DNA of 64,000 nucleotides from an uncultured Bacteroidota bacterium (GTDB lineage Bacteria > Bacteroidota > Ignavibacteria > UBA10030 > UBA6906). The DNA lies in NCBI GenBank assembly GCA_963700635.1, contig CAVOYH010000003.1, positions 96,001-160,000 of the forward strand. Direction: 5' to 3'. How positions within the stretch are numbered: the first letter of the stretch is position 1; every line of letters begins with the position of its first letter. Positions 15,686 through 64,000 of this stretch are shown in pieces. Position numbers and translations under genes: made by a program. A model generated the notes under the pieces. The model did not search any database. It was not told the DNA's origin and worked only from the letters and a program-made list of their open reading frames with translations.

Positions 15686-18649
15686 TCAGTTCTGAATCTG
15701 GCTCCCCTCCACAATCGCTCTTACCACAGCGTCATGGACGGCGGGGCGGATTCGGGCGATCTTGAGGTTTGCCCGCGTCGGGTGCACCCGGTTCGTGAGG
15801 AGGATGACGCTCAGCTTCCGTTCGGGATCAGTCCAGATGGATGTACCCGTAAAGCCGGTATGGCCGAACGAGGAGGGCGAAAAAAGCGAACCCGCCGATG
15901 AACCGAGAACCGATTTCATGTCCCACCCCAGGTACCGATCCTGCCCCTGAACATATTTCCGCGTAAATTCTATCACGGTGCTTTCCTTGAGGAAGCGGAT
16001 CCCGCCGTACGTTCCTTTGTTCAGGAGCATCTGCATATAGATTGCCAGATCGGACGCCGTGGAGAACAAACCGGCATGTCCCGCAACACCCCCGAGCAGC
16101 GCCGCATTCTCATCGTGCACCTGTCCGCACACAAGCGCCTTCCGCCACAGTGTGTCTATCTCCGTGGGCGCCACCCGATCGTGGATGTCTGCGGGAGGAT
16201 TGTACATGGTATTCTTCATGCCAAGCGGTAAAAAGAATTCATTTTGCACAAACTCCGACAACGGCATACCCGTAATCTTCTCCACAACCTTCCCCATCGT
16301 GATCATGCCGATGTCGCTATAGATAGTCGTGTCGCCTGGCACGGCTACAAGGGGCGTGGCATAAATGGAATCCAGGGCCTCCTCGGCCGTTGAACACATC
16401 AGGAAGAACCTGCGGAATGGCGGGAACCCCGCCCGGTGTCTGATAAGATGCCGGATCGTGATGGCGCTCTTGGGCCCTTCCCGGAACTGGGGCAAATACG
16501 TTCCCACAGAGTCATCCAGGGCGATCCGCCCCTGGTCAAAGAGTTTCATCACGGCAGATGTTGTTCCGATCACCTTGCTGACCGAGGCCAGATCAAACAC
16601 TGTCGTGTAGTCAATGGGTCGTAACGATGAATCATACGTGTACGTGCCGAAGGGCTTGTTATACACGAGAATCCCGTCCCGCACCACGGCGAGCTGGGCT
16701 GCGGGGAATGCGGAATCCCGGATGGCATGTTCGATGATACTATCCAGGGCCAGCAGCCGCTCGGGATCAAACCCTGCCACCGATGGATCATCCCAGCGGA
16801 GCCGGTCCTTCGGGCATGAAGTTCCGCTTCCCAGTGCAAAGTAGTCCGCGATCTCTATGGGTAATTTGCCACAGATACCACTTTCGGCAAAGATCGCTTC
16901 CACGGTCGCCTCCACAAGCGGCTCGTTGTCTCCGTAGGCACACACAATGGCATCCGCCCAGCCAAGAGTTCCGGCAAGGTAAGGATTTCCAAACAGCATC
17001 ACGACCGTTGGTATTCCCGATTCTTTCACCTTCTTCAGGAACGGCTGCAAACCCTGGGGCAAATCGATCTTTCCCGAGGACGTCCTGACTTTGACGTGCA
17101 CGGGCAGGAGAAGGAGGTCCGCACGTTTGACGCGCGCAAGTGCCGCATCAATATCGATGATATTGCTGGATGGCGAGAGCCGGTAGGTATCAATCTGGCC
17201 GTTCTTGCGCTGGAGCAGCTGGTGAAAATATGCGCCCGGTAGTTCCCCTGTTCCAGAATTCGAAGCACGGTTGATATCCACCCTGCCATCCGGCGTATCA
17301 GTCAAGACGACGGATACAATCCGTTTGCGTATGGGAGTCTGCAGGGGCAGCAGGGTGCGATTGTTCTTCAGGAGAGTGATAGAGTGGCGCGCAACATCCC
17401 GGGCCAGTCTCCAGTGGGCCCGCGTGCCTACCTGTGTAGAAATTGCGTTGATATCCACAGTCCGCAAGGTATCCAGACCCAGATTCTGTTTGACTGCAAG
17501 AATCTTGCGTACAGAACGATCCAATCGTCCTTCGGTGATTTCGCCGCTCCGTGCCGCAGCAATCAGCGCAGAGAACGCGGCCTCCTCGTCAGGCGGCATC
17601 AACACAATGTCCACGCCTGCCTTTACCGCCATCACGCTGGCCTTGCCGGGAGAGTACCCGCGCGTCACACCCCGCATATCCATCGCGTCGGTCACAACCA
17701 GTCCCTCAAATCCCAGTTCCCGTTGCAGGACTCCGGTGATAATCGCCGGCGAGAGGGATGATGGGAGCAGGCGTGACGGATCCAGTGCCGGTACGGCAAG
17801 ATGGGCAATCATGACGGATTGTGCACCGGCCTGTATGGCGGTCCGGAATGGCGCCAGTTCAATGGAGTCAAGCCTGTCCCGGGCAAAGGGTATACGCGGG
17901 AGTTCCAGATGTGAATCGGTTCCCGTATCCCCGTGACCGGGGAAATGTTTGGCCGTCGAAAGCACTCCGCCATCCGTCGTTCCCCTGATAAATGCCGAAA
18001 CCATCTCGTGCACGATGGCCGGGTCACTGCCGAACGACCGGGTGTTGATGACAGGGTTGAGCGGATTTGTGTTCACATCGGCAACCGGAGCATAGTTCTG
18101 ATGGACCCCGATCGCCCGCGCTTCCCGGGCTATCGCCCGGCCTATTTCATAGGCATACCGTGAGTTTCGTGTGGCGCCGATGGCCATTGCATCCGGGAAT
18201 GGCGTACCACGGCGGATACGCATGGCGACACCACGTTCAAAGTCAGCACTGACGAGTAACGGGAGACGCGACAGACCCTGAAGCGTGTTGAGTCTCACCG
18301 CCGCTTCGTACACATCACCCTGCCAGAGTATGAACCCGCCAACATGTTTCTCCTGAACGAGCCGGACAAGACGGGCAAACTCATCACTCTGCTGGCTGTA
18401 GTACTGCCCGAACACACCGACCATCACCATCTGCCCGACCTTCTGCTCGAGCGTCATCGTGGCCATTACGCTGTCAACCCAGTTCTCCCGCACGAATACA
18501 CTTGCGGGCCGGTCAGCGGTTGTTATGACAGGTCTCGTGGAGGTTGCCGGCATCCCCCGTTGCGGAACAGATGTGGGGGCGCAGGAGTTTACAGAGAGGG
18601 CAAACACCACAATCGCAACGATGGTATGAACGTGTGAACCGTGCTGCAT
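15686..18649 (-). CDS. nagZ: GH3 beta-N-acetylglucosaminidase (NagZ-like) fused to a beta-lactamase-fold serine hydrolase (AmiE-like); lipoprotein
   Basis: Lipobox VNSC; ADFERG, APVADVN, RSFG, KHFPGHGDTGTDSH, VVTDAMDM; C-terminal FDLASVSK (SxxK), YSD, GHTGFTG. Confidence 0.9.
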   Translation of the reverse strand: MQHGSHVHTIVAIVVFALSVNSCAPTSVPQRGMPATSTRPVITTADRPASVFVRENWVDSVMATMTLEQKVGQMVMVGVFGQYYSQQSDEFARLVRLVQEKHVGGFILWQGDVYEAAVRLNTLQGLSRLPLLVSADFERGVAMRIRRGTPFPDAMAIGATRNSRYAYEIGRAIAREARAIGVHQNYAPVADVNTNPLNPVINTRSFGSDPAIVHEMVSAFIRGTTDGGVLSTAKHFPGHGDTGTDSHLELPRIPFARDRLDSIELAPFRTAIQAGAQSVMIAHLAVPALDPSRLLPSSLSPAIITGVLQRELGFEGLVVTDAMDMRGVTRGYSPGKASVMAVKAGVDIVLMPPDEEAAFSALIAAARSGEITEGRLDRSVRKILAVKQNLGLDTLRTVDINAISTQVGTRAHWRLARDVARHSITLLKNNRTLLPLQTPIRKRIVSVVLTDTPDGRVDINRASNSGTGELPGAYFHQLLQRKNGQIDTYRLSPSSNIIDIDAALARVKRADLLLLPVHVKVRTSSGKIDLPQGLQPFLKKVKESGIPTVVMLFGNPYLAGTLGWADAIVCAYGDNEPLVEATVEAIFAESGICGKLPIEIADYFALGSGTSCPKDRLRWDDPSVAGFDPERLLALDSIIEHAIRDSAFPAAQLAVVRDGILVYNKPFGTYTYDSSLRPIDYTTVFDLASVSKVIGTTSAVMKLFDQGRIALDDSVGTYLPQFREGPKSAITIRHLIRHRAGFPPFRRFFLMCSTAEEALDSIYATPLVAVPGDTTIYSDIGMITMGKVVEKITGMPLSEFVQNEFFLPLGMKNTMYNPPADIHDRVAPTEIDTLWRKALVCGQVHDENAALLGGVAGHAGLFSTASDLAIYMQMLLNKGTYGGIRFLKESTVIEFTRKYVQGQDRYLGWDMKSVLGSSAGSLFSPSSFGHTGFTGTSIWTDPERKLSVILLTNRVHPTRANLKIARIRPAVHDAVVRAIVEGSQIQN

Positions 18650-19588
18650 TTATTTCCCTTGCAGAAGTTGTTGCGCCACAATCACGGCTCCGCGAACCGG
18701 CGGATAGAGGGCCGGATGGACCTCCGCACCCGGAACCAGTTCTGCTATGGCATCGCGAAGGATGTGCGCGTAGATTGTTTCGTGATCGATAAGTCCGCCG
18801 ATGAACACGACGCCGACAGGTGAGACTCCGGGCATCCGGCGTACTAATGCGGCAAGCGTTTCCGCGAGGTGATTCGCCGATTGATGCAAAAGGGTCACGG
18901 CGACCCGGTCACCTTCTGACGCCGCATCCATTACAAGGGGGGCAAGAGAGGCAAGATCGAATTTCTCCTGATACACCGACGCGATAATCCGGTCGCGGGA
19001 TATCCATCCAAACCGCTCGGCAAACAAGACGCGAAGTCCGGAAGCGCCGCTTCGTCCGTCGAAATCCCTGACCACCGCCCTGGCCGCTTCGGCCCCGAGG
19101 AAGTACCCTCCGCCTTCGTCTCCCAGCACACGGCCCCACCCTCCGACAGAGGCGATCGTACCGTCGGGCATTTTGCCGATCAGGTTGGAACCTGTTCCTG
19201 CAATGACAACGACACCCGGTCCTCCACCGAACGCGCCTTCAACGGCAATTCGGGCGTCCGTCTCGATGGTCATCGGCATCGATGACCAGCCGCGGGGGAT
19301 GCAGAGAGTCTGGAGTGCCTCCTGAAGCTTCTCCCTGACGGGTTTACTCCCCACACCGGCGAGTCCGAAAACAACGGCCCCGATGTCGAGAGGGGAACGC
19401 CTGGCAGTACTGCAGCAACCGGCGATCAACTCCAGGAGATTTCTGGCTGCGACGTCAACCCCGGCGACATTCGGATTTCCCGTCCCCAGCTGCATGCGAG
19501 CCAGTTCGGTACCGGATCCATCAGCGAGGACGCCAAGGGTTTTTGTTCCGCCTCCGTCAGCCCCGAATACAAGTCGAGATTCAGGCAT
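18650..19588 (-). CDS. BadF/BadG/BcrA/BcrD-family amino-sugar kinase (MurK/NagK-like)
   Basis: GADGGGTKT, TDARIA, IAGTGS, VGGWGRVLGDEGGG. Its TAA abuts the nagZ ATG. Confidence 0.85.
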   Translation of the reverse strand: MPESRLVFGADGGGTKTLGVLADGSGTELARMQLGTGNPNVAGVDVAARNLLELIAGCCSTARRSPLDIGAVVFGLAGVGSKPVREKLQEALQTLCIPRGWSSMPMTIETDARIAVEGAFGGGPGVVVIAGTGSNLIGKMPDGTIASVGGWGRVLGDEGGGYFLGAEAARAVVRDFDGRSGASGLRVLFAERFGWISRDRIIASVYQEKFDLASLAPLVMDAASEGDRVAVTLLHQSANHLAETLAALVRRMPGVSPVGVVFIGGLIDHETIYAHILRDAIAELVPGAEVHPALYPPVRGAVIVAQQLLQGK

Positions 19589-19741: not shown

Positions 19742-20980
19742 ATGTATGCCCGAATCGTGAAAGGACTTCTGATAACCCTCCTCCTCCACTCGCCCCTCGA
19801 CGCACAGCCGGTTGTCAAGACCGGGATTGAGACCCTTCGGGACAGTGGCTTTAAGATCCTCCGGGGGGCCCGGATCGGGCTCATCACGAATCCGACTGGT
19901 GTGGACGCGAACCTGGCCTCGACTATCGACATACTCCATGCGGCAAAAGGAGTACAACTCGTCGCCCTCTTCGGCCCCGAACATGGCGTGCGGGGGGACT
20001 TCGCGGCTGGCGACAAGATCGATACATATACCGACAGCCGGACGGGACTGCCGGTCTATTCCCTCTACGGAAAAACCCGCAAGCCAACGCCGGACATGCT
20101 CGCCGGCATCGATATGCTGGTCTACGACATCCAGGATATCGGTTGCCGCTCATACACCTACATCAGCACGATGGGTCTGGCAATGGAAGCCGCCGCCGCG
20201 CAGAAGATTCCGTTTGTGGTGCTTGACCGGCCAAACCCACTCGGGGGTTTACGCGTCGAAGGGAATATCGTTGAAAAACCATTCGAGTCTTTTGTCAGTC
20301 AGTTCCCTATACCCTACGTGTACGGGCTCACGTGCGGCGAACTTGCCCGTTTGCTTAATGGCGAACGGATGCTTGCCGGCGGTGCCGTCTGCTCGCTCAC
20401 CGTTGTTCCGATGCAGGGGTGGAAGCGCGCGATGACCTTTCCGGAGACCGGACTCCACTGGGTCCCCGCATCTCCTCACATACCGCGTGATGGCTCAGCG
20501 CTTCACTACGTCAGCACCGGTGTCCTGGGTGAACTCGGCGTTATCTCGGAGGGTGTGGGGTATACTTTGCCCTTTGAAACGCTTGCAGCGGCGTGGATCG
20601 ACCCGGCCCTGCTTGCCGACAGGATGAACGCCCTGAAACTCAAGGGGATACTTTTCCGTCCGATTACATTCAAGCCGTTCTACGGCCGTGATGCAGGAAA
20701 ACAACTGAACGGCGTGCAGGTTCATCTGGCCGGTCCGTCGCCCGCAAACCTCATGGCCATACAGTTTCTGTTTCTGCAGGTCCATCACGAGCTGTATCCG
20801 GACAAAAATCCGTTTCTGCTGGCCGATGGCGGGCGTATCCGCATGTTTGACAAGGTTGCCGGTTCCGATCAGGTGCGGCTGCTGTTCAGTAAACGAATGG
20901 TGTTTGATGATGTGAAGGGGATGCTGGAGAGGGATGTCGAGGGATTCAGAAAGACGGCCCGGCACTATCTTCTCTACTGA
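19742..20980 (+). CDS. namZ: Exo-beta-N-acetylmuramidase NamZ (DUF1343/YbbC)
   Basis: Signal peptide; GLITNPTG, LFGPEHG, SLYG, DIQDIGCRSYTY, LDRPNPLGG, SEGVGYTLPFE. Confidence 0.92.
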   Translation: MYARIVKGLLITLLLHSPLDAQPVVKTGIETLRDSGFKILRGARIGLITNPTGVDANLASTIDILHAAKGVQLVALFGPEHGVRGDFAAGDKIDTYTDSRTGLPVYSLYGKTRKPTPDMLAGIDMLVYDIQDIGCRSYTYISTMGLAMEAAAAQKIPFVVLDRPNPLGGLRVEGNIVEKPFESFVSQFPIPYVYGLTCGELARLLNGERMLAGGAVCSLTVVPMQGWKRAMTFPETGLHWVPASPHIPRDGSALHYVSTGVLGELGVISEGVGYTLPFETLAAAWIDPALLADRMNALKLKGILFRPITFKPFYGRDAGKQLNGVQVHLAGPSPANLMAIQFLFLQVHHELYPDKNPFLLADGGRIRMFDKVAGSDQVRLLFSKRMVFDDVKGMLERDVEGFRKTARHYLLY

Positions 20981-20989: not shown

Positions 20990-22012
20990 TTATGATCCCC
21001 GGAACAGTTCGAGGCTTGCTGCAAAGTCCGGGTGGGAAATCTGCACTTCCTGGTACATCTTCACAAGATGCGCCTGATTCACCTTGTGGAAGTCGGATTC
21101 GAGAGGTGTGATTGAGAGGCCGCCGAGATCGACCGCGGCCGGACTGATAAGCAGGCGCTCCTCTCCCTCCGCAAAAAAGAACGACGGACGGTGCTGCACG
21201 CGGGGAAAAACGAGTACATACCATGTCGCTGCATCATACCAGGCAAGGATGTTCACCATGGGTTCCTCCTTCTCCCCTCTGATTTCCTGCAGCGAAGAAA
21301 GGTAACGTTGCAGGGAATGGCGAAGGAGATCCGGATCGGTTCCCTCCCATGACAGGAAGCGTCTCCCACCCCCCTCAATGGCGATGGCACGCAGAGCCGG
21401 AGAGTCCAGCATCACTGTTCCCCTTTCCGACCGTACTCTTCCATATTCCGATTCAATCGGCATGGTCATCCGCGTCCCCGCCTGGAAATGAAGATGATCC
21501 GGGGCGGAGGCTCCACACCGTGCTCCATTATAGAAGGTGCTGTAGCGGGGAGCAAGGTCCCGTGTGAGGCTCAACATCACGCTCAAATCTTCGCCGAGAC
21601 GCTGCGGCACATGGTCGATGCGCGGAATCGTAAAATGTTCCGGGAGAATCGGGAATGGATTACACAGGAGAATATAGCGCTCGCCGTAGGGGATTCCCCT
21701 CTGATGCTCCGGCAGGTTGGAGAGGCACAGGAAACACCGCCGTTCGCGGATGGACTGGTCATCCACCCTGGCTGCAGAGGATGTCAGCCGTCCCGGATTA
21801 AACTGGACCAGAACCTCACACCCATCAAACTGGAATCGCCGCGTCTGCACCGAGTCAAGACTGGCATATCCGGCACGGAGCATTTCCCAGGTCTCTTTCT
21901 GCTGCAGGAAGAGCCCGTGTGCACGGTCCGCCCACGATGTCGGAAGTCCGCCATACTGTGCAAGAGAACCCGGCTCAATCTTTACACGGTCCAGAGCAGC
22001 ATTGACCGCCAT
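20990..22012 (-). CDS. DUF4922 family protein (HIT/GalT-like nucleotidyl phosphorylase fold)
   Basis: VQFNPGR..SSAA, CFLC, LCNPFPI...HFTI, YNGARCGASAPDHLHFQAG (HxHxQ), HRP, ISPAAVDLGG. Confidence 0.82.
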   Translation of the reverse strand: MAVNAALDRVKIEPGSLAQYGGLPTSWADRAHGLFLQQKETWEMLRAGYASLDSVQTRRFQFDGCEVLVQFNPGRLTSSAARVDDQSIRERRCFLCLSNLPEHQRGIPYGERYILLCNPFPILPEHFTIPRIDHVPQRLGEDLSVMLSLTRDLAPRYSTFYNGARCGASAPDHLHFQAGTRMTMPIESEYGRVRSERGTVMLDSPALRAIAIEGGGRRFLSWEGTDPDLLRHSLQRYLSSLQEIRGEKEEPMVNILAWYDAATWYVLVFPRVQHRPSFFFAEGEERLLISPAAVDLGGLSITPLESDFHKVNQAHLVKMYQEVQISHPDFAASLELFRGS

Positions 22013-23619
22013 TATGTGCCCCGCCTGCTTCGCTTCGCTGTCTTTCCCTTCCCGGCTTTCCTGGTGGTCATTCTTAGTTTTCCGGACCCTGCACGTCTTT
22101 TTGTCCGGGACGGGGTACGTTTTGTAGCGACGCCTTTCCCTGCCGGCTTCCGCCCTGAGGCCGCGTTCTTCCTGATTCTCGCCATCACTTCCATCGTCCG
22201 GATCTTATCCTTGTAGAAGTTGAATCCGTTCAACTTTGGTATGTCAAGATCCGCATCGGAGTTTCCCTCCCAGCGGCGGCAGAGGTAGATCGGTTCGTAG
22301 ATGCGCCCGATCTGATAGTCACGCGAAATTGCCAGTCCGAGCGCATAATCTTCACCATAGCTCACATTAGGGACCTTGAGGTCGCGGAGAATGGACGTCA
22401 CGAAGGCACGCGGGGCGCCGAGTCCGTTGATACGGAGAGCATTGTTGCGCCCGTTCGCCGGAGTCCATTCTTTGTGGTCAATAATGCCGGGGGGTATCGG
22501 TTCGAGCTGGAAATTTGTCATCTGGTAGCTTCCGATCACCATCGCACAGCCTTCGGCGTGGAAGGCGTCCACTACCTTCTGCAGTGTAGATTCATCCTTG
22601 TAGAGGTCGTCGCTATCCAGCTGCACCGCAAAGCGTCCGCACTGCGCATGATGAACACCCAGATTCCAGCACCCCCCGATGCCAAGGTCGTTCCGGTCGG
22701 GTATCACATGGATGATCCTGTTGTCGCACGCAGCCAGTGACCGGAGCAGCTCGGTTGTTCCGTCGGTCGAATGGTTGTCCACCACAATCACATTAAAGAC
22801 AAACCGGGTCTGCTGTTTGAGTACTGATTCTACCGCCTCCCCGACGGTGCGCATCCGGTCCCGGACCGGAATGATGACCGAAGCTTCGACGGGAAACGCG
22901 CCGGAACTCAGGCCGGCTTTTCTGAACCTGGGAGGGAGATACGCTTTTATTTTCTTGAGGTGATATGTGGCCGCCTGCTCCATTTCAACCTGAACCTGGC
23001 GGTTCCTGGGATCAACATAGTCAAAGAGTTTCTCACCGGATCTCCGGACGTCACTTTCTACTTTGCTGTACAGATATTCGCCAACACGGAGAACCGGCGC
23101 AAGGCGGGAGAGGGCCAGACGCAGGGCATACCATCCGGCAAAAGAGTACTTCTGACCGGCAATTTCCCGAAGCGCACGTTTGAGTGTCTTACCCTCAAGG
23201 AGTACCACCGACCCGAAATTGAAGTCATCGCGGAGACTGCCTTGTTGGTATTCGATCACCGGGTGGGCTGTCCGGTGCCCGTCTTTCATGTCGTAGTAGT
23301 CCGAAAAAACAATTCCCGCCCCGGTTTGTTCCGTCACCGCGTGAAGACGTTCAATACCAAACTGACCAAAATCGATCAGGGTGTCGTGCAGCAGAAGAAG
23401 GGCATGGGAAGTCCTGAGTTGTTTTCCGATCTGCGCCATCGTTCCGCTTCCCAGAAGTGCACCGGTGGTGATGATACTGCATCCGTCAATGGGGGGAACA
23501 TCCTTGTCCGTCGCAAGCAGAACAACATGCTCGACCAAACCTGATGTTTCAAGCTGATTGACCGTTTCGCGCGTGAACGCTGAACCGGAATACGGAAGGT
23601 AGGCGGTGATGTGTTTCAT
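22012..23619 (-). CDS. Glycosyltransferase family 2 protein (two GT-A-like halves) with Lys/Arg-rich tail
   Basis: YQQGSLRDDFNFG; ASVIIPVRDR, VVDNHSTDGT, QLDSDD, SYGEDY, RRWEGNSD. TAATG overlap with the DUF4922 gene. Confidence 0.88.
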   Translation of the reverse strand: MKHITAYLPYSGSAFTRETVNQLETSGLVEHVVLLATDKDVPPIDGCSIITTGALLGSGTMAQIGKQLRTSHALLLLHDTLIDFGQFGIERLHAVTEQTGAGIVFSDYYDMKDGHRTAHPVIEYQQGSLRDDFNFGSVVLLEGKTLKRALREIAGQKYSFAGWYALRLALSRLAPVLRVGEYLYSKVESDVRRSGEKLFDYVDPRNRQVQVEMEQAATYHLKKIKAYLPPRFRKAGLSSGAFPVEASVIIPVRDRMRTVGEAVESVLKQQTRFVFNVIVVDNHSTDGTTELLRSLAACDNRIIHVIPDRNDLGIGGCWNLGVHHAQCGRFAVQLDSDDLYKDESTLQKVVDAFHAEGCAMVIGSYQMTNFQLEPIPPGIIDHKEWTPANGRNNALRINGLGAPRAFVTSILRDLKVPNVSYGEDYALGLAISRDYQIGRIYEPIYLCRRWEGNSDADLDIPKLNGFNFYKDKIRTMEVMARIRKNAASGRKPAGKGVATKRTPSRTKRRAGSGKLRMTTRKAGKGKTAKRSRRGT

Positions 23620-56464: not shown

Positions 56465-56535
56465 CGTTCCTCCTGATTGTTGCATGGCGTGAATGGCTGC
56501 CGGAATGACAGGCAAAAAGGCGCAGTCCTTCAATG

Positions 56536-56726: not shown

Positions 56727-59567
56727 ATGAGCATCCTTACCCGATGTGTGGCGGTTCTGCTCGGCCTTTGCCTCTGTATCCCCACGCTGTTTGCCGGGAC
56801 TTCCGGCAAGATTTCCGGCACAGTCCGGGATTCCAGGACAAAGGAACCACTTCCCGGGGTGAACCTCATTGTTGAGGGAACAACGCTCGGCGCATCAAGC
56901 TCCATCGACGGCCGGTATGTGATCCTCAATGTCCCGCCGGGGCGCCACAAGGTAATGGCCTCATTGATCGGTTACCGCCGATTTGAGGTAAACGAACTGC
57001 GCGTATCGGTGGATTTTACCACTCCCCTTGACATCGATCTGGTGGAGGGGAGCGTGGAACTTGACGCGGTGGTAATTCAGGCCGAGCGTTCGCCGCTCAT
57101 CCGCCAGGATCTCACCAACCCGGTGGCTTCCATCTCTTCGGAGGCCATCGAAGCCCTCCCGGTGACGGATATCAGCGAGGTGATCGGGCTACAGGCGGGG
57201 ATTACCGTCGATGACGACGGCAGTATCCATATCCGCGGCGGTTTGGGCAATGAGATCGCCTACACCCTGAACGGTATGAACATCAATAACCCGTATGGCA
57301 ACACCCGCTCGGTCGGCGTCGCCACCAATGCCGTCCGGGAGGTTTCCGTTTCCAGCGGCACGTTTAGTGCCGAATACGGCAGCGCCCTGAGTGGAGTGGT
57401 AAATTATGTTACCCGGGACGGCGGATCCAGGTGGGCTGGCAGCGCGAAGTATTACACCGGCGACCACGTCAGCAGCCACAAGGATCTCTTCTTTAATATT
57501 GACAATTTCAACCCCGCAAATGTGAACCGGACAGAGTTTACGATCGGCGGTCCCGTCGTGGGTGACAACCTGATGTTCTTTGCTTCAGGCGTCTACAACT
57601 GGAGCGGCGGACACCTGTACGGCCAGCGGATCTATCTCCCCACCGATTCGTATCTCTCACGGGAGGGGTTCCCTTCCGACGATCCGCGGCGCGGCACGGC
57701 GTCCTCTCCCTACTATTTCGGCCCGGTCGGTCACGACACGACGGACACGGTTGGTCTGCCCGGGGGTGACGGCAGTACCGTCTCCCTGAACTGGAGCCGT
57801 TCTTATAATATCCAGGGAAACCTGAGCTGGCGCGTTTTCCCTGAGATGAAGTTGAAGTACGAGTTTATTGTAAATTTTGATGAATCACCGGATGTAAACC
57901 CCTTCGCTGCCCGGTACAAACCTGACGGCATCGCTCTTGAACGTTATGAAGGGTACATGCACGCGGTGGAGTTCACACACACGGTGAGCCCTTCGATGTT
58001 CTACACGGTGAAGGGATCGTTTATCACGGATAAAGGACGTAGCTGGGCGTACGATAGCCCCACCGACCCGCGCTATGTCCCGTCATTTTATTCCCGCACC
58101 TTTCCCAATACGTCATACCTGACCGGCGGCACAGATCCCGATCGCTTCAGCCGGAAAACTGAGACTCTGGCGGGCAAGGTGGACCTCGTGGCGCAGCTAT
58201 TTGGCAACCATGAAGTAAAAGCCGGTATAGAAGTGCGGAGCCACCACCTGACGGTCGAGTCGTACACACTCCAGTTCCGCGATCCGAACGACCCGAGCGC
58301 GGAACCCAGCTTCACCAATGCCATCGGGAACGGGAATGTCTTCCTCCCCTATATCCCGACCGTTGAGGGGGGCTACACCGCCTATGACAGGAAGCCGCTG
58401 CAAATGGCCGCCTATGTGCAGGACAAGATCGAGCTCTTCCAGTCTATCATCCTCAACCTTGGCGTCCGTTACGAATACTTCGATCCGGCAGCCAGGTACA
58501 ACAACAACCTGAGCCAGGAAGTGACCGATTCGAACACGACGTTTATTCAGGCTAACCTCGCCGATGCGTCAGTCAAACACATGGTCAGCCCCCGTATCAG
58601 CGTTTCGTATCCCATTACGGATCAGGGGACCATTCGATTCTCCTACGGACATTTTTACCAGATTGGTTCTCTCTCCAGTCTGTACAGCAATCCCAACTTC
58701 CGCGCACCACAGGGCTCGACTCCGTCATTCGGCAATCCGGACGTGCGTCCTCAAAAGAGCGTACAGTATGAACTCGGCCTGCAGCAGGGGTTGACTGAGG
58801 ACCTGAAAATAGAACTCTCGGGTTATTACAAGGACGTGCGCGACTACATATACTCGCAGCGCGTGATCACCGCCCGGGGCGACAAGCAGTACAACCTGCT
58901 CACCAATTTGAGTTATGCCAACACCCGCGGTATCAGCATTTCGCTGCTCAAGCGGCGTTCTGTTGATGACCTCCTCTCGGCCACACTTGACTATACCTTC
59001 CAGGTGGCCGAGGGGAACCGCACACAGCCCACGGATGAGATTTTCTTTAATGAGCAGCAGGGGAGGCTGAGTCAGACCTATCTGGTGCCGCTGAGTTTCG
59101 ACCGGAGCCACACGATTACCAGCACGGTCTCTCTTTCACAACCCAACGACTGGTCCGTGAGTATGATCGGCTATCTGCGCACCGGCACCCCGTACACTCC
59201 GGAGTTCCCGTCGAACGTGATTCCTATCTCGTTCGTGCAGAACAGCGACCGCCAGCCGATGCAGTGGAATGTGGACCTGAAGGTTGAGAAGTTCTTCACC
59301 TTCGGTCCGTTTTCCTATTCCGTGTTCGTGCAGGTGGATAATCTGTTCGACGCCCAGAATGAGCTCTACGTCTACGTGAATTCCGGCCGCGCGCTCTACA
59401 ATATCTCCCAGACACTGCAGCCGGAGCTCCTTTCCGACCTCAGAAACCGGATCACTCGGGACGACCCGGGGATGATTCCGTTGAGCGGCGTGGACAACTA
59501 CTATGCTAATCCGGGAAATATCAGCACCCCGCGGTTGATCCGCGTTGGTGCATCGATCCTATTCTAA
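56727..59567 (+). CDS. TonB-dependent receptor with N-terminal carboxypeptidase-regulatory-like domain
   Basis: GTSGKISGTVRD..TKEPLPG, HIRGG..NE..Y.LNG, SGTFSAEYG.ALSGVVNYVTRDG, YVQDKIE, VSPRI, SYGHF, YELG; terminal F. Confidence 0.9.
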   Translation: MSILTRCVAVLLGLCLCIPTLFAGTSGKISGTVRDSRTKEPLPGVNLIVEGTTLGASSSIDGRYVILNVPPGRHKVMASLIGYRRFEVNELRVSVDFTTPLDIDLVEGSVELDAVVIQAERSPLIRQDLTNPVASISSEAIEALPVTDISEVIGLQAGITVDDDGSIHIRGGLGNEIAYTLNGMNINNPYGNTRSVGVATNAVREVSVSSGTFSAEYGSALSGVVNYVTRDGGSRWAGSAKYYTGDHVSSHKDLFFNIDNFNPANVNRTEFTIGGPVVGDNLMFFASGVYNWSGGHLYGQRIYLPTDSYLSREGFPSDDPRRGTASSPYYFGPVGHDTTDTVGLPGGDGSTVSLNWSRSYNIQGNLSWRVFPEMKLKYEFIVNFDESPDVNPFAARYKPDGIALERYEGYMHAVEFTHTVSPSMFYTVKGSFITDKGRSWAYDSPTDPRYVPSFYSRTFPNTSYLTGGTDPDRFSRKTETLAGKVDLVAQLFGNHEVKAGIEVRSHHLTVESYTLQFRDPNDPSAEPSFTNAIGNGNVFLPYIPTVEGGYTAYDRKPLQMAAYVQDKIELFQSIILNLGVRYEYFDPAARYNNNLSQEVTDSNTTFIQANLADASVKHMVSPRISVSYPITDQGTIRFSYGHFYQIGSLSSLYSNPNFRAPQGSTPSFGNPDVRPQKSVQYELGLQQGLTEDLKIELSGYYKDVRDYIYSQRVITARGDKQYNLLTNLSYANTRGISISLLKRRSVDDLLSATLDYTFQVAEGNRTQPTDEIFFNEQQGRLSQTYLVPLSFDRSHTITSTVSLSQPNDWSVSMIGYLRTGTPYTPEFPSNVIPISFVQNSDRQPMQWNVDLKVEKFFTFGPFSYSVFVQVDNLFDAQNELYVYVNSGRALYNISQTLQPELLSDLRNRITRDDPGMIPLSGVDNYYANPGNISTPRLIRVGASILF

Positions 59568-59597: not shown

Positions 59598-62500
59598 ATG
59601 AAGAAGACGATGATCATGCTCCTCGCGTTCCTGGCCATTGTGGTGCTGCGCACCGCGGCCACGGCACAGGAGATTGACTGGAAGACGTTTGATCCCAAAC
59701 GGGCGACCCCGGATGAATGGCAGCGCGTCCTGAGTTTTATGGAACAGAATGAGCGGCGCCTGGCTAAAACAACAGGCGAAGCGCGTGAGATCCGCAGCCT
59801 GATCATCCGCGGCAACAAGATTACCACCGTCGTCTATAATTACGGGAGTATAACCCGTCCGAATACGCTCGGCAACGTGGCGGACCTAGTGTGGAACCGC
59901 CTGGGATACGGGTTTGAGTTTACTCCTCTGGTCGGCGCAACGGTCACCGACACCAGCGGCAGGCAGGTCAGCATTCTTAATGACGGCATGTGGCTGGCCA
60001 ATCAGGGGGGGTATTCTCCCGACAACACGGTCAAATGGGGATGGCTCCCGAAGGCCGGTTATGCAGCTTCCGGCCAGAATGATATCGCCGCATGGAGTCA
60101 CCGGTCCGATGTGGGTGGCGACCTGACACGCCGGCCCCACAGCTGGCCGGAGTCATGGTACAACCAGACACTCGGACGGTATGTCTGGCCGGCATTCCTC
60201 GGAAACGATGCAACTGCCCCGGACGAAGAGGCATATTTTGTTGTGGACGATTACACCAATGCCAAGTATCCATACTATCCGTTTCCCGATGATTCATCAA
60301 AGCGCGGCCTGGGTCTGGATATGGAGTGCCGTTTCTTCCAGTTCAACAACCCTCTGGCCGAAGACATCATTTTCCTCGTCTATCGTGTAACGAACAAAAG
60401 TCCAAAAACCATCAACAAGGTCTACTTCGGCATGTACGGTGACCCGCATGTCGGTGGTCCAGCCGATTACGGAGATGACCTCGCGTATTTTATCCCCCCC
60501 AGGGGGGTGCTCGCCGACCCGTTTCCCCAGCGCGCACGATCCATGGTCTATGCCTGGGATGACAATGGGACGGGGGACGGCGGTCTGACCTGCGGTTACT
60601 TCGGGTTCAAATTTCTCGAATCGCCGACCAACTCCGCCAACGGGCGGGACGATGACGACGACGGGATCAACGATGAAAGTCCGTTTAATGACGCAGGATT
60701 CTATATTGACGGTGTGACGTTCCCCCTGAACACGGGAATCGAGGACACGATAAAATACATCAAAGTGTTCGGAAAAATCAAAGCCCGGTGGGCGGGCGAC
60801 GAGGATGGCGACTGGGATCCTGAAAAAGACGACGTCGGCATCGATGGTATCGCCGGCACCGGGGATTTCGGCGAGGGGAACAAGAAACCGGACATCGGGT
60901 ATGACGCCAACGGCATCCTGGTCTCCGAACCGCACTTCGGCATCCGTGACGTTGACGAGTCGGATCAGATCGGTCTGACCAGCTTTAATGCCCTCGGCTA
61001 TACCAACGGCGTTCCGAATGTCCCGAAGAATGACGTCTTCTTCTACCAGCTGCTGTCTTCCGACAGTATTGCCATTGACCAGGTGCTCTTCCGGACGCCG
61101 AGCGACAACATCTTCCTCTACGGCTCCGGACCATTCCCGCTGGCTCCGGGCGGGACCCAGCGGTTCTCGATCGCGCTGATGATGGGGGAGAATCTGCCCG
61201 ATCTGCTCCTGAATGCAGAAACTGCACAGCGTGTGCTTGAAGCCAACTACCTGTTTGCCCAGCCCCCGCCCAAACCAAACGTTCGTGCAATCCCCGGCGA
61301 CCGAAAGGTAACCCTCTACTGGGACGCTGCGCCGGAAATTGCCGTGGATCCGCTTACCGCCACGCAAGATTTTGAAGGGTACAAGATTTACCGGAGCGAG
61401 GACTATACCTTCAGTGATGTCTACACCATCACCGACGCGAACGGCGCGGCATTCCTGCCGAATGCGATGATCGATGCGACCGGGCAACGCGCGCAGTTTG
61501 ATCTCGTGAACGAGTGGTCCGGCCTGCATCCTGTGGAGTACATCGGCCGCGGCGTGAAGTACAACCTTGGCAACAACTCCGGCCTCGTCCACGAGTTTGT
61601 GGACTCAACCGTCACCAACGGCAAGACCTATTACTACGCCGTGGCGTCCTACGACCATGGCTTCGACAGTCTCGGTGTACAACTCCCTCCGACAGAGTCG
61701 CAGATCGCAATCACGAAGGACCCCGTGACCGGCGTGCTGTCTTTTGACCAGAACACGGTCTCCGCCGTGCCGGGACCGCTTCCATCGGGTCAGACAAAAG
61801 CGATAGTCGACAATGACTTTATGCCCAGGCGCGTGAAGGGGATCTCCACCGGTTCCATGACTGTGAAGGTCATGGAGGATGTGGCTGTCCTCGATGGCGC
61901 TCAGTACAATATCGATTTCCGCACAGCGGCCTCGAAGGTGGTCTATGATATTCAATCCCTCACCTTCCACACCGACAATTTCATCTCTCGCGACACGGTG
62001 TTCGTTCCGCTGAGCAGGAAAAACCTCATTACTTCCACCGTTACGGTAAAAGATGCTGCCGGTGCAACCGTTAACCCGTCGCTCTATCGTATTGATGTTC
62101 CGGGAGGAAGGATCCGCGGTGTTGCGCCCGGCAACCTTCCGGCTAATGCGGCATTCAGCATAACGTATCAGTACTACACCGTGTTCGAAAGCAACCGGCT
62201 TGCCGCGGAAGATGATAACGCGGTATTCGACGGTATGCGCGTGTATGTCAAAGATGTGCCGCTGGGGATTGATTCGGCCAACAGCGGCTGGGCAAGCAAG
62301 AATAATACATCCCTCACCGCACGTGTGCACAAGACCATTGCCCTGCCAACCGCACCGTTCCGGCCGGCCCCGCTCGATTTCCAGATTCAGTGGAACAGAA
62401 CTGACACGACGGCCAACGGCAAGTGGGCATTCCCGGGTGACACGCTCCTGAACAATTCCGGCCGCCGTGTGGTGGTCTGCCCGTTCAGAATCATCAACGT

Positions 62501-63095
62501 CACCGATACCTCAACCATCCGCGTACTCGTGGACAAGGCCCAGACGGATAGTATGTGGAGACCGGGACGGGAGATTGTCATCGTCACACCGCCCAAATAC
62601 GCTCCCCAGTCCCCCATCCCTGTGCTGGTCTCAGTCACGTTCTCCGCAACCCCCGGACAGGCATTAGTCCTTCCCACACAGGGTAACGTGTTCGAGGTCA
62701 AGACCTCGAAACCGTTTGCGGCCGGGGATCAATACACCTTCACGAGTACGTCGTCCAAATTTGATGCCGCCCGGGCCACCAATGCCCTGGATCAGATTCG
62801 TGTGGTCCCGAATCCCTACGTCGGCTACAGCGACATAGAGCAGCCGGGAGCAAGCTCGATCCGCCGCGGAGAAAACAAACTGCAGTTCCGCAATCTCCCT
62901 CCAAAGTGCACGATTCGTATCTACTCGCTTGTGGGTGAACTCGTCGATACAATCGTGAAGGATGATGGCAACAGTTATGTTGACTGGCAGTTGCTCTCCT
63001 ACGAAGGCCAGCGGCTTGCCTACGGCGTGTATATCTATCATGTGGATGTGCCCGGTGTGGGCGAGAAGATCGGCCGGTTGGCGCTGATTAAGTGA
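59598..63095 (+). CDS. Large secreted protein with acidic Ca-binding-like motifs, FN3 and variant T9SS-like CTD (partner of the TonB receptor)
   Basis: Signal peptide ending ATA/Q; NGRDDDDDGINDE, DEDGDWD; PPPKP...KVTLYWD...DFEGYKIYRS...YYYAVASYD; IRVVPNPY...FRNLP.KCTIRIYSLVGELV...GVYIYHV...RLALIK. Confidence 0.8.
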   Translation: MKKTMIMLLAFLAIVVLRTAATAQEIDWKTFDPKRATPDEWQRVLSFMEQNERRLAKTTGEAREIRSLIIRGNKITTVVYNYGSITRPNTLGNVADLVWNRLGYGFEFTPLVGATVTDTSGRQVSILNDGMWLANQGGYSPDNTVKWGWLPKAGYAASGQNDIAAWSHRSDVGGDLTRRPHSWPESWYNQTLGRYVWPAFLGNDATAPDEEAYFVVDDYTNAKYPYYPFPDDSSKRGLGLDMECRFFQFNNPLAEDIIFLVYRVTNKSPKTINKVYFGMYGDPHVGGPADYGDDLAYFIPPRGVLADPFPQRARSMVYAWDDNGTGDGGLTCGYFGFKFLESPTNSANGRDDDDDGINDESPFNDAGFYIDGVTFPLNTGIEDTIKYIKVFGKIKARWAGDEDGDWDPEKDDVGIDGIAGTGDFGEGNKKPDIGYDANGILVSEPHFGIRDVDESDQIGLTSFNALGYTNGVPNVPKNDVFFYQLLSSDSIAIDQVLFRTPSDNIFLYGSGPFPLAPGGTQRFSIALMMGENLPDLLLNAETAQRVLEANYLFAQPPPKPNVRAIPGDRKVTLYWDAAPEIAVDPLTATQDFEGYKIYRSEDYTFSDVYTITDANGAAFLPNAMIDATGQRAQFDLVNEWSGLHPVEYIGRGVKYNLGNNSGLVHEFVDSTVTNGKTYYYAVASYDHGFDSLGVQLPPTESQIAITKDPVTGVLSFDQNTVSAVPGPLPSGQTKAIVDNDFMPRRVKGISTGSMTVKVMEDVAVLDGAQYNIDFRTAASKVVYDIQSLTFHTDNFISRDTVFVPLSRKNLITSTVTVKDAAGATVNPSLYRIDVPGGRIRGVAPGNLPANAAFSITYQYYTVFESNRLAAEDDNAVFDGMRVYVKDVPLGIDSANSGWASKNNTSLTARVHKTIALPTAPFRPAPLDFQIQWNRTDTTANGKWAFPGDTLLNNSGRRVVVCPFRIINVTDTSTIRVLVDKAQTDSMWRPGREIVIVTPPKYAPQSPIPVLVSVTFSATPGQALVLPTQGNVFEVKTSKPFAAGDQYTFTSTSSKFDAARATNALDQIRVVPNPYVGYSDIEQPGASSIRRGENKLQFRNLPPKCTIRIYSLVGELVDTIVKDDGNSYVDWQLLSYEGQRLAYGVYIYHVDVPGVGEKIGRLALIK

Positions 63096-63195
63096 GAGAC
63101 GCTGTGCCCCCTCCCCCGGACTGACGAGCGGGAGGGGGGATACGCAGAGAAGGACAGAGAATTGATGTTCACTACTGAAAGCGTATGGAGGTTGT

Positions 63196-64000
63196 ATGAA
63201 TAGTAGCTACTGCACACGGGGCACACAGGCGGTGGTGCTTCTGCTGGCGTTCGCTGTTCTGAGCACCGCTTCTGCGGATGCCCAGCTGTTCCGCAGCACC
63301 GCGAAGGTCGGCACGACAGCAGCCCAGTTCCTGAAGATCGGTGTCGGCGCCCGCGCCCTGGGCATGGGCGGGGCACAGGTGGGAGTCACGGGCGACATCA
63401 GCGCCATCTACTGGAACCCCGCCGCTCTCTCGCGCATGAACGTGGTCAGCGAACTGACCTTTAACCATGCAAACTGGCTCGCCGACATCAACTACGACTT
63501 CGCCGCAGGCGTGATGCCAATCGGCGACCTGGGCACGTTCGGACTCTCGGTCATCTCCCTCCGCGTACCCGAAGAGATCGTCACCACCGTCGCCAACCCC
63601 GACGGCGACGGCCGGCGCTGGGACGCTTCCTCACTCGCGTTCGGACTCACCTACGCGCGGAACCTGACGGACCGCTTCTCCATCGGGCTCAACTTGAAAT
63701 TTATCCATGAGAGTATCTGGAGCGAGAGTGCATCCGGGTTTGCCATCGACGTCGGCACACTGTATATCACGGAGATTCCCGGCCTCACGATCGGGGCGTC
63801 GATCGCGAACTTCGGCACAAAAATGCAGCTCGACGGCCGTGATCTCAATTTTAACTACGATCCGGACGACAATGCCGGCACAGGGCCGAACAACATCCCC
63901 TCCAAACTCGAAACCGGAGCGTATGACCTTCCGCTCACCTTCCGGATTGGTCTTGCCTGGGACCTCTACCCCGTTGATGAGTTCAGAACAACATTTGCGG
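63196..64000 (+). CDS. PorV/PorQ-family outer membrane beta-barrel (3'-truncated)
   Basis: Absent from the ORF track because it has no stop in the window. SD GGAGG, ATG 63196; translates KVGTTAAQFLKIGVGARALGMGGA...IYWNPAALS...WLADI...LPLTFRIG. Confidence 0.88.
   Translation, partial: MNSSYCTRGTQAVVLLLAFAVLSTASADAQLFRSTAKVGTTAAQFLKIGVGARALGMGGAQVGVTGDISAIYWNPAALSRMNVVSELTFNHANWLADINYDFAAGVMPIGDLGTFGLSVISLRVPEEIVTTVANPDGDGRRWDASSLAFGLTYARNLTDRFSIGLNLKFIHESIWSESASGFAIDVGTLYITEIPGLTIGASIANFGTKMQLDGRDLNFNYDPDDNAGTGPNNIPSKLETGAYDLPLTFRIGLAWDLYPVDEFRTTFA

Follow-up and report, generated by a model that had tools for sequence, protein, structure and literature searches.

A probable peptidoglycan-harvesting gene block with SusD-less uptake modules in an uncultured member of the Ignavibacteria

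Introduction

In soils, sediments and reactors, peptidoglycan makes up a large and nitrogen-rich pool within the biomass of dead microbes. The organisms that consume it, and the machinery they use, are poorly defined at the gene level. Here, a gene block is described from an uncultured bacterium of the Ignavibacteria (Bacteroidota; UBA10030; UBA6906), located at positions 15,686–64,000 of a 64,000-nucleotide stretch (the window; contig CAVOYH010000003.1 of assembly GCA_963700635.1, positions 96,001–160,000). The block probably encodes a system resembling a polysaccharide utilization locus (PUL), by which peptidoglycan from outside the cell, from dead or living neighbours, would be harvested and catabolized. 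A preliminary description, made from the letters of the window alone, had proposed such a system for foreign walls. The published studies of peptidoglycan degradation that came to light work by counts of glycoside hydrolase (GH) families, mostly GH23, GH73 and GH103. No paper on a system of this kind was found, judged by titles and the openings of abstracts, with supplementary files and subscription papers outside the scope, and the phrase “peptidoglycan utilization locus” did not occur in the literature searched. The locus offers a concrete and conserved gene set by which consumers of murein might be recognized.

Several described systems share parts with it. The Tannerella forsythia cluster Tanf_08345–08385 is reported to encode two Gtf proteins, LytB, AmpG, NamZ1, MurT, MurK and MurQ, and in the model outlined for it, exogenous peptide-free glycan strands are processed in the periplasm and then taken up through AmpG. 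The window likewise groups AmpG, NamZ, a kinase of the N-acetylmuramic acid (MurNAc)/N-acetylglucosamine (GlcNAc) type and a glycosyltransferase-annotated gene. However, it holds neither MurT nor MurQ, and its kinase is closer to the structure 8zo3 than to the MurNAc-kinase entries 8ow9 and 8oqw. Beyond the T. forsythia cluster, it adds type IX secretion system (T9SS) hydrolases, two TonB modules, stem-peptide catabolism, NagX and NagB, and it belongs to another host lineage. The murQRP-amiE-nagZ-namZ operon of Bacillus subtilis is reported to provide a trio of exo-enzymes outside the cytoplasm, namely a YbbD-type NagZ, an AmiE-type hydrolase and NamZ. The same trio is found here, but with NagZ and the AmiE-like domain fused and placed in a diderm periplasm, with AmpG uptake instead of a phosphotransferase system, and with no MurQ or MurR in the window. 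As in ykfABCD (YkfC and YkfB), an NlpC/P60 protein with SH3b domains adjoins an MR/MLE epimerase; unlike in ykfABCD, the epimerase carries a conserved twin-arginine signal, and it scores below the cut-offs of both the DgcA and the L-Ala-D/L-Glu epimerase models.

The overall plan is that of the SusC/SusD PULs, with surface capture, a TonB receptor with CarboxypepD_reg and Plug domains, extracellular endo-enzymes, periplasmic exo-enzymes, an inner-membrane permease and, in relatives, a Reg_prop/Y_Y_Y sensor kinase. However, no SusD was found, the receptors lie far below the SusC/RagA cut-off, and a protein termed X713 together with a barrel of the PorV/PorQ family stands in the place of SusD. 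The enzymes are also T9SS cargo here, not lipoproteins. A pairing of a protein bearing a T9SS C-terminal domain (CTD) with a PorV/PorQ-family barrel is known from PorZ–PorQ and PorU–PorV, in which the CTD is reported to serve as an anchor. According to a review of the T9SS, PorZ keeps its CTD in order to bind the PorQ barrel, and cognate PorV-like barrels have been suggested to shield CTDs from cleavage. Unlike those pairs, X713 and its barrel, for which the anchoring is modelled, lie within a nutrient-uptake operon by a TonB receptor, and X713 is no sortase or lipopolysaccharide-delivery protein. Finally, the catalytic domain of a GHL10 protein in the window aligns end to end with that of Cwp19 from Clostridioides difficile. 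Cwp19 also carries a cell-wall-anchoring part, whereas the window protein has fn3 and a T9SS CTD, and its presumed targets are foreign walls instead of autolysis.

Overview of the locus

The 29 open reading frames (ORFs) at 13,026–64,000 were scanned with Pfam and NCBIfam and 13 further upstream ORFs with Pfam, giving a total of 42 ORFs of at least 100 aa in the window. The wall-acting enzyme families named in the preliminary description were recovered at the family level. To these can be added genes it had left unnamed, encoding NagX-like, GNAT, PD40, DUF4922 and GT2 proteins, two PorV/PorQ barrels, a TIG-domain lipoprotein and two large proteins that match no family. Its four CTD proteins (Amidase_3, M23, GH18 and GHL10) all stood, but the total rose to six with the addition of 39,495–40,856 and 54,998–56,644. 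Its two TonB receptors were both found, although the first is interrupted by a frameshift. Its tight minus-strand operon of 12 genes (39,299 down to 20,990, GHL10 to DUF4922, with gaps said to be below about 75 nt) was borne out by measured intergenic gaps of −4 to 71 nt, computed with the start codons adopted in this analysis. The co-directional minus-strand run extends further, to 56,644, and comprises 21 genes with three larger gaps of 195, 198 and 291 nt.

What can be observed is the assignment of proteins to families, their signals and CTDs, the order of the genes and how well it is conserved, and a modelled contact between the X713 tail and a PorV-like barrel; from these we infer all of the substrates, which way material flows and that the genes are co-regulated. 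The predicted localizations form a complete series from the outside to the inside of the cell, along which four steps can be envisaged. In the first, the T9SS would export a MurNAc-L-Ala amidase, a strand-cleaving GHL10 protein, an M23 endopeptidase acting on cross-links, a GH18 protein and two propeller-like CTD proteins, and these exported enzymes would solubilize sacculi. In the second, fragments would be captured at the surface by the TIG lipoprotein and X713, which would retain its divergent CTD and sit on a dedicated PorV/PorQ-family barrel by the TonB receptor that imports them; a paralogous second module (receptor 2, X1165 and PorV2) may act next door. In the third step, a periplasmic NagZ–AmiE fusion and NamZ would peel GlcNAc, MurNAc and stem peptides off the strands, the stem peptides would be processed by a YkfC-like NlpC/P60 protein, a Tat-exported epimerase and a serine hydrolase of the penicillin-binding protein (PBP) fold, and a NagX-like enzyme in the membrane may put acetyl groups back on glucosamine residues. 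In the fourth, AmpG would bring disaccharides into the cytoplasm, where a MurNAc/GlcNAc-type kinase and NagB would pass the amino sugars to glycolysis and where a GT2 protein and a GalT-type HIT enzyme would also act.

Conservation in related genomes

Genome contigs were searched with an alignment of X713, chosen as a probe from outside the wall enzymes, and up to 10 kb on each side was considered. This gave 73 distinct loci, taken from the best 80 of at least 668 stretches encoding an X713 relative, to which the 29 proteins of the window were compared by tblastn (E < 1e-8, coverage > 0.3). By record title, the loci come from Bacteroidota (34), Ignavibacteriota (23), Calditrichota (2), Balneolota (2), Kryptoniota (1), Chlorobiota (1), Cyanobacteriota (1) and records without a phylum (9, including KSB1), several of these phylum labels being the submitters' bin labels. 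Stygiobacter electus 09-Me (locus L069) is a cultured carrier, and the module is also present in metagenome-assembled genome records labelled Melioribacter roseus and Ignavibacterium album.

Homologues of the receptor and the PorV-like barrel were each found in 66 of the 73 loci, of the TIG lipoprotein in 62, of the CTD protein that follows TIG (CTD474) in 54 and of the GHL10 protein in 37. Less frequent were NlpC/P60 and the epimerase (15 each, co-occurring in 15), Amidase_3 (14), NagX (12), the CTD protein with a weak NHL signal (11), and PD40 and GT2 (10 each); GH18, M23, NagB and X1165 were found in four loci each, DUF4922 and the kinase in three, the PBP-fold hydrolase BlaA, NamZ and the exported protein U364 in two, and AmpG and the NagZ–AmiE fusion in one. 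The recurrent order is receptor–X713–PorV–TIG–CTD474–GHL10, continued by NlpC–epimerase–NagX and further genes, and the part from receptor to CTD474 is nearly invariant. Where at least 4.5 kb of downstream sequence was available, PorV was present in 56/56, TIG in 55/56 and CTD474 in 50/56 loci, and among the 42 loci whose flank measures 9 kb or more, 26 have GHL10 no farther than 8 kb downstream of X713. Upstream of the module there is often amidase(−)/PD40(−)/GT2(+) or NlpC–epimerase.

When both flanks measure at least 9 kb, one or more of eight wall-acting families occur in 30 of 37 loci and two or more in 18; GHL10 is present in 27. That this neighbourhood recurs across phyla speaks for more than chance. 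The preliminary description had called for a comparison of synteny and had named a loss of linkage between TonB modules and wall genes as speaking against its reading. The linkage was found in the relatives, in those 30 full-flank loci, which does not refute the reading. The proposal of a PUL-like system for foreign walls thus draws support from this linkage, from the match of GHL10 to Cwp19, from the group to which the GH18 protein belongs and from conserved secretion signals, in so far as sequences can tell. That much of the block recurs across related phyla suggests a widespread and undescribed route of biomass recycling.

The near-invariance of the core could also be read differently, with receptor–X713–PorV–TIG–CTD474 as a housekeeping complex of the outer membrane or the T9SS that has no substrate tie to peptidoglycan and adjoins wall genes only through shared regulation or history. 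X713 is indeed unusually conserved for a substrate-binding protein, with at least 51% identity in its best 120 clusters, wall genes are missing nearby in 7 of the 37 full-flank loci, and the PorV/PorQ family otherwise consists of T9SS machinery. However, the paralogous second module and the tandem duplicates described below are typical of nutrient-uptake families and not of single-copy machinery, and the wall genes occur on either side of the module, in arrangements that vary by lineage. A housekeeping role is therefore considered highly improbable.

In a quick tree of 77 X713 homologues, a branch with 100% SH-aLRT support separated the 70 primary copies from the seven tandem second copies. 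These tandem second receptor–X713 modules (33–39% identity), which form a clade of their own, are found in L009, L017, L019, L020, L059, L065 and L067, from KSB1, Caldithrix, Kryptoniota and related organisms. In L033 (1–6,700), L045 (1–6,700) and L059 (3–3,662), from more distant genomes, genes like those for X1165 and PorV2 sit just upstream of the X713 module, with GHL10 between in L033 and L045, so that the two module types are linked beyond the close relatives of the window.

To identify additional parts, Pfam was run on 42 ORFs that had been left unexplained in 10 of the 73 loci. A Reg_prop/Y_Y_Y/HisKA_3 sensor kinase and a LuxR-type regulator were found upstream of the module in L018 (M. 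roseus) and L069 (S. electus). In L063, a POT peptide transporter lies between AmpG and NlpC/P60. The remaining assignments include an M19 dipeptidase in L073, a GH84 protein in L066, a ROK regulator in L059 and a SASA-type esterase in L061. The sensor kinase with its regulator, the POT transporter, the M19 dipeptidase, the GH84 protein and the ROK regulator would suit the proposed system.

Outer-membrane uptake modules

The two TonB modules are built alike and lack SusD: each consists of a receptor, followed by a large uncharacterized protein with a CTD-like tail and a barrel of the PorV/PorQ family. No member of the SusD family was matched by the 29 ORFs at E ≤ 1e-3, nor by X713, X1165 or the TIG protein at E ≤ 0.5. 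TonB-dependent receptor 1 (45,420–48,624, minus strand) has CarboxypepD_reg, Plug and barrel domains, and receptor 2 (56,697–59,567, plus strand), its paralogue, matches the barrel, Plug and CarbopepD_reg_2 models with 103, 44 and 61 bits. The N-terminal part of receptor 1 is 43% identical to receptor 2 over 232 aa. Against the SusC/RagA model TIGR04056, the N-terminal part of receptor 1 scored 60 bits and receptor 2 scored 77 bits, compared to a cut-off of 368, with only the N-terminal CarboxypepD_reg/Plug region aligned.

Receptor 1 is split over two frames (45,420–47,708 and 47,479–48,624) by a single-base shift near 47,568, placed by comparison with the orthologue in L004, at a site that is not a homopolymer. 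Two separate genes were ruled out, as 63 of the 64 related loci that could be assessed carry the orthologue as a single ORF (nine others were not assessable). Like splits were seen in the X713 gene of L002 and the receptor gene of L011, which makes indel errors of long-read assembly a plausible cause.

X713 (43,268–45,364, minus strand) is made up of a β-rich N-terminal domain, fn3 and a divergent type-A CTD. It matches no Pfam family and is a candidate surface subunit for substrate capture. There are 1107 homologues at E ≤ 1e-5, of which the best 120 were all at least 51% identical, and a profile search recovered 552 cluster representatives at E ≤ 1e-30 among 1.84 billion. The names among those shown were “hypothetical protein” and one “fibronectin type III domain-containing protein”. 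The predicted structure (pLDDT 74) gave Foldseek matches only to fn3 and the CTD of PorZ; the 400-aa N-terminal domain had no informative match, and the search speaks neither for nor against an enzyme role. A search of the ESM Atlas returned only “hypothetical protein” for X713 and generic GT2 clusters for the GT2 protein of the locus. X1165 (59,598–63,095, plus strand), the counterpart of X713 in the second module, is conserved to a similar degree and likewise belongs to no family, and its 1795 homologues carry the name “hypothetical protein” in every case shown. The likeness between X713 and X1165 is limited to the last ~125 residues (33% identity over 127 aa), the CTD-like tail. Profile–profile comparison, and only this, matched the X713 tail to the type-A CTDs of the window (hhalign, 89%, E 2.3e-6).

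The barrel next to X713, PorV1 (42,215–43,249, minus strand), and that next to X1165 (63,196–64,000, plus strand, cut by the end of the window) match NF033709 with 196 and 166 bits (cut-off 90), while both remain under the cut-offs of the specific PorV, PorQ and PorV2 equivalogs. PorV1 is the candidate partner of X713. A model of PorV1 in complex with X713 residues 575–698 reached an interface score (ipSAE) of 0.91, against 0.00 for the best of three controls, with at least 97% of contacts in common between runs and a partner pLDDT of at least 86. This mark was attained by 58 of 80 solved complexes and by 2 of 110 mismatched pairs. The model lends support to a contact in which the tail of X713 binds the PorV1 barrel, although its pass may stem from likeness if a similar complex has already been solved.

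The TIG-domain protein (40,904–42,184, minus strand; TIG 42 bits) is a candidate glycan-binding lipoprotein. The surface-export signal of Bacteroidota lipoproteins is acidic. In 58 of 59 TIG orthologues, the lipobox Cys is followed by at least one acidic residue, and the protein is probably surface-exposed, going by this signature. An N-terminal export signal is reported to direct lipoproteins to the surface in Bacteroidota. Taken together, the modules expose a SusD-free uptake architecture that comprises two unannotated families (X713 and X1165) and locus-specific PorV-like barrels. Confirmation of this architecture would widen the PUL concept as well as the roles known for T9SS components.

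Secreted hydrolases

Canonical type-A CTDs (TIGR04183 at or above the cut-off of 23) are present on six proteins, with starts at 25,527, 36,918, 39,495, 49,824, 52,190 and 54,998. All six have hydrophobic N-termini and thus combine a CTD with a signal peptide, as expected of type-A cargo. Divergent CTD-like tails are found on the two large proteins X713 and X1165. Among homologues with complete 3′ ends, the CTD signature is kept in 33/40 for GHL10, 9/9 for the amidase and 43/53 for CTD474.

The GHL10 protein (36,918–39,299, minus strand; GHL10, fn3 and CTD) is predicted to be a T9SS-secreted, Cwp19-like peptidoglycan glycosidase or lytic transglycosylase. It matches GHL10 (PF02638) with 226 bits and TIGR04183 with 31.6 bits, and its catalytic domain aligns with the Cwp19 structure 5oq2 at E 3.7e-85, residues 31–391 on 24–384. 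Recombinant Cwp19 is reported to have lytic transglycosylase activity on peptidoglycan.

The Amidase_3 protein (25,527–28,163, minus strand), a predicted T9SS-secreted N-acetylmuramoyl-L-alanine amidase, has two Big_5 domains and a type-A CTD (Amidase_3 44 bits, Big_5 78 bits, TIGR04183 27.9 bits). The segments GHGG, SIHSN and LSEGSF are present at the positions of the zinc-binding and catalytic residues of the family. It adjoins a PD40/TolB-like β-propeller protein (28,160–29,080, minus strand; PD40 54 bits), predicted to be periplasmic, and the two genes stay together in 10 of the 73 loci.

The predicted T9SS-secreted M23 (LytM-type) metallopeptidase (49,824–52,181, minus strand; Por_Secre_tail 40.7 bits) has the motifs HxxxD (HNGVD, 77) and HxH (HVH, 159), which are kept in two orthologues. 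The adjacent GH18 protein (52,190–54,706, minus strand), also predicted to be T9SS-secreted, matches the full Glyco_hydro_18 profile with 79 bits. Its nearest solved relatives are YdhD (3cz8, E 1.7e-14), a cortical-lytic enzyme (4s3j) and YaaH (4s3k), with no classical chitinases among them; it was assigned to the YdhD/SleL/YaaH-like group, which is the group for spore-cortex peptidoglycan. The M23 and GH18 proteins have a common C-terminal region of 441 aa (49,824–51,120 and 52,190–53,465; 36% identity, E 2e-65), composed of an fn3-like segment, a ~220-aa domain with no assignment and the CTD, a single module on two catalytic heads.

Two cargo proteins have weak repeat signals. CTD474 (39,495–40,856, minus strand; Por_Secre_tail 35 bits) gives sub-threshold SBBP, Reg_prop and NHL matches, resembling β-propeller repeats, and the protein at 54,998–56,644 (minus strand; Por_Secre_tail 46 bits) a weak NHL signal. 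Another gene, U364 (48,823–49,827, minus strand), is predicted to encode an exported protein but matched no family.

Amidase_3 and M23 enzymes often serve in cell separation. The CTD hydrolases could accordingly be autolysins or separation enzymes of the cell itself, with its own muropeptides being recycled and the TonB modules serving an unrelated nutrient. Own-wall recycling through AmpG is the textbook case, and Cwp19 itself is reported to be an autolysin. However, cargo of the T9SS lands outside the outer membrane, which lies between it and the sacculus of the diderm cell itself. The receptor module and the wall enzymes are adjacent and co-oriented across several phyla, and a PUL-type sensor precedes the module in relatives. 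The combination of periplasmic exo-enzymes, peptide catabolism and NagB also points to consumption, beyond re-use. Self-directed remodelling is thus quite unlikely, and harvest of external peptidoglycan remains the favoured reading.

Periplasmic and cytoplasmic enzymes

A signal peptide or lipobox is present on the NagZ–AmiE fusion, NamZ, NlpC/P60, BlaA and PD40. The fusion protein (15,686–18,649, minus strand) has a lipoprotein-like signal and joins a two-domain GH3 β-N-acetylglucosaminidase of the NagZ/YbbD type to a PF00144 serine hydrolase (GH3_N 301, GH3_C 40, Beta-lactamase 218 bits). GH3 N-acetylglucosaminidases give the nearest solved structures to its GH3 part, among them YbbD/NagZ of B. 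subtilis (3bmx, E 1.6e-71, residues 58–602), and the motifs KHFPGHG (234), SVSK (689) and HTG (930) are present. The AmiE-like domain may act as a MurNAc-L-Ala amidase, judging solely from the nagZ–amiE pairing in B. subtilis. NamZ (19,742–20,980, plus strand; GH171), a predicted exo-β-N-acetylmuramidase, has a hydrophobic N-terminus or signal peptide and matches NamZ_N with 290 and NamZ_C with 117 bits.

Stem peptides would be handled by three exported proteins. The YkfC-like NlpC/P60 endopeptidase (35,662–36,846, minus strand) matches NLPC_P60 with 74 and SH3_16 with 57 bits and has SH3b domains. It is followed by the MR/MLE epimerase (34,448–35,635, minus strand; MR_MLE_C 125 bits), of the L-Ala-D/L-Glu epimerase or N-acetyl-D-Glu racemase type, which scores 207 bits with the DgcA model (cut-off 400) and 141 bits with that for L-Ala-D/L-Glu epimerase (cut-off 343). 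Here and in 11 of 14 orthologues (L002, L003, L023, L027, L032, L035, L043, L047, L055, L058 and L060; three were not assessable), the motif RR-x-F-L precedes a hydrophobic stretch. Characterized L-Ala-D/L-Glu epimerases are cytoplasmic and a periplasmic member would be unusual, but the conserved twin-arginine signal implies that this step would take place in the periplasm. BlaA (31,448–33,220, minus strand) is an exported serine hydrolase of the class-A β-lactamase/PBP fold with a C-terminal extension of 300 aa (Beta-lactamase2 189, Peptidase_S11 35, bla_class_A 110 bits, the last with a cut-off of 200). The motifs SLIK, SDN and KTG are present, no ExxLN was seen in the sequence, and the protein is a candidate D-Ala-trimming peptidase.

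At the inner membrane, the AmpG-like permease of the major facilitator superfamily (23,644–24,936, minus strand; TIGR00901 172 bits, cut-off 350; MFS_1 52 bits) may import GlcNAc-MurNAc-type disaccharides, by analogy with AmpG of T. forsythia. The NagX-like polytopic acetyltransferase (33,249–34,412, minus strand) matches NF046061 with 213 bits (E 5e-63, cut-off 480). The kinase, NagB, GNAT, GT2 and DUF4922 proteins, predicted to be cytoplasmic, lack a signal. The BadF/ASKHA sugar kinase (18,650–19,588, minus strand; BcrAD_BadFG 126 bits) resembles MurNAc/GlcNAc kinases; its nearest solved structure is 8zo3, an “N-acetylmuramic acid/N-acetylglucosamine kinase” (E 1.9e-24), and a “Putative novel MurNAc kinase” (8ow9) matches with just 1.3e-6. 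The long NagB-like glucosamine-6-phosphate deaminase (29,077–31,437, minus strand) scores 194 bits with NF002557 (cut-off 384) and 80 bits with TIGR00502, and the GNAT acetyltransferase (24,960–25,502, minus strand) 80 bits with Acetyltransf_1.

The remaining cytoplasmic pair consists of a GT2 glycosyltransferase (22,012–23,619, minus strand; Glycos_transf_2 82 bits, 247–379), with an unassigned N-terminal part of 240 aa and a basic tail, and the DUF4922 protein (20,990–22,012, minus strand; 190 bits). In 10 of the 73 loci, a GT2 homologue with 51–55% identity sits just upstream of the receptor or follows the module. The DUF4922 protein has the GalT-branch HIT fold and is a candidate nucleoside diphosphate (NDP)-sugar phosphorylase or nucleotidyltransferase. 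A single-sequence search of the PDB gave no match; the kinship emerged by profile and fold search, in which the model (pLDDT 87, pTM 0.89) matched Apa2 (4i5t, an Ap4A phosphorylase; E 3.3e-9), GalT and ADP-glucose phosphorylase. The segment DHLHFQAG (HxHxQ) is invariant in 27 homologues. Plant GDP-L-galactose phosphorylases have been assigned to the same superfamily as these fold relatives. The GT2 and DUF4922 genes travel with AmpG or the uptake module in the window (20,990–23,619, minus strand), L018 (18,388–21,091) and L069 (15,770–18,200), and in the last two, both Melioribacteraceae loci, a GlcD-like FAD oxidase follows DUF4922.

A broader reading, put forward tentatively and judged less likely to hold than to fail, joins these elements. 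Ignavibacteriota, KSB1, Calditrichota, Balneolota and Kryptoniota would share a SusD-independent, T9SS-coupled glycan importer, made up of a TonB receptor and a CTD-retaining X713 docked on its own PorV/PorQ barrel, helped by the TIG lipoprotein and the propeller-like CTD protein. Its ancestral substrate would be murein, making these organisms dedicated consumers of necromass. The GT2–DUF4922 pair by AmpG would represent a new cytoplasmic route for GlcNAc-MurNAc, in which reverse glycosyl transfer to an NDP-sugar is followed by phosphorolysis.

The same downstream enzymes invite another explanation, that the block is a general locus for amino-sugar polymers such as chitin, chito-oligosaccharides or GlcNAc-rich glycans, that GlcNAc oligomers enter through the receptor modules, and that the wall enzymes merely share the GlcNAc pathway downstream. 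GH18, NagZ-type GH3, NagX-, NagB- and NagK-like functions are the core of described GlcNAc and chitin pathways, the NCBIfam names NagX_SO_3504 and NagK_SO3507 point that way, and related loci have a GH84 N-acetylglucosaminidase and a ROK regulator. However, the genes most tightly linked to the receptor are GHL10, NlpC/P60 with the epimerase, and Amidase_3, none of which has a role in chitin degradation. NamZ, the AmiE-like domain, M23 and AmpG are specific to the wall, the GH18 protein is nearest to the YdhD/SleL/YaaH group and has a weakened motif, and no GH19, GH20 or AA10-type lytic polysaccharide monooxygenase was found in the Pfam scans of the window and the scanned related ORFs. A GlcNAc-polymer locus is accordingly unlikely.

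Points against the proposed function

A number of observations weigh against peptidoglycan harvest as the function of the block. NagX, NagB, GH18 and the kinase fit chitin or other GlcNAc polymers equally well, and the specificity assigned to GHL10 by homology leans on a single characterized family member. The M23 match (PF01551, 26.1 bits) is under its cut-off of 28.7, and M23, AmpG, NagX, NagB, the kinase and the epimerase all miss the cut-offs of specific models. The GH18 protein failed the motif test: in DGININFE, compared to DxxDxDxE, the Glu is retained but both later Asp residues are Asn. The Asp preceding the catalytic Glu matters for catalysis in GH18 chitinases, and since Asn replaces it here, activity of the protein is uncertain. 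DGININFE is also found in L003 and L027, and DGVNIDFE in L004.

The catabolic route is incomplete within the window, as no MurQ-type SIS etherase, NagA-type deacetylase, AnmK-type kinase or LD-carboxypeptidase was found among the 42 ORFs, nor MurT or MurP in the window scans. The “near-complete recycling” of the preliminary description, which fails for MurQ-type and NagA-type genes in particular, was therefore overstated. NamZ, NagZ, the AmiE-type hydrolase, the permease and the MurNAc-type kinase were all matched, with AmpG and the kinase below their equivalog cut-offs.

The frameshift in receptor 1 may be an assembly error, but may also reflect real inactivation. No regulator gene is present in the window and no shared operator motif was found, and scans for promoters and terminators gave counts no higher than in shuffled sequences. 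In the related loci, seven of the 37 with full flanks (L017, L020, L030, L034, L048, L059 and L067) have no wall-acting homologue within 10 kb, and the linkage in the other 30 is a raw count, so that enrichment is argued and not computed.

Gene layout and neighbouring features

Within the 195-nt gap before GHL10, a hairpin with a perfect 16-bp stem (39,373–39,408, minus strand), followed by GUUUUAAC, resembles a terminator or attenuator. Its minimum free energy is −35.5 kcal/mol (z −6.1), which was matched by 0 of 200 shuffles, and the uptake module and the 12-gene array may consequently be separate or attenuated transcription units. Another terminator-like hairpin lies at 54,902–54,875, in the gap after the NHL-type CTD gene. 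Single sites from the promoter and terminator scans, in the gaps upstream of receptor 1 (48,776–48,748), receptor 2 (56,574–56,602) and the kinase (19,730–19,701), carry no evidential weight. A common operator was sought by comparing 9-mers on both strands of eight intergenic regions; seven distinct 9-mers were shared (14 with reverse complements), about as many as estimated by chance. A G+C-rich inverted repeat without a T-run lies at 63,096–63,195, right after the stop codon of X1165.

Recent horizontal transfer was dropped as an explanation, as the GC content is 0.54–0.59 all along the window, with no step at the borders of the locus. An Omp85-like gene (13,026–15,656) and two upstream CTD proteins (9,309–12,133) were kept out of the system, since nothing ties them in. 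Further upstream, a group II intron occupies 6,679–8,491 (minus strand), with Rfam domains D1–D4 at 8,203–8,491 and the domain V/VI region at 6,679–6,750. Its interior holds just an ORF with a maturase domain (GIIM, 6,904–7,443) and short fragments, and the intron-encoded protein looks degraded. A tRNA-Phe (GAA) at 12,260–12,333 (minus strand) is flanked by an HD-domain gene and the T9SS CTD proteins at 9,309–10,478 and 10,592–12,133.

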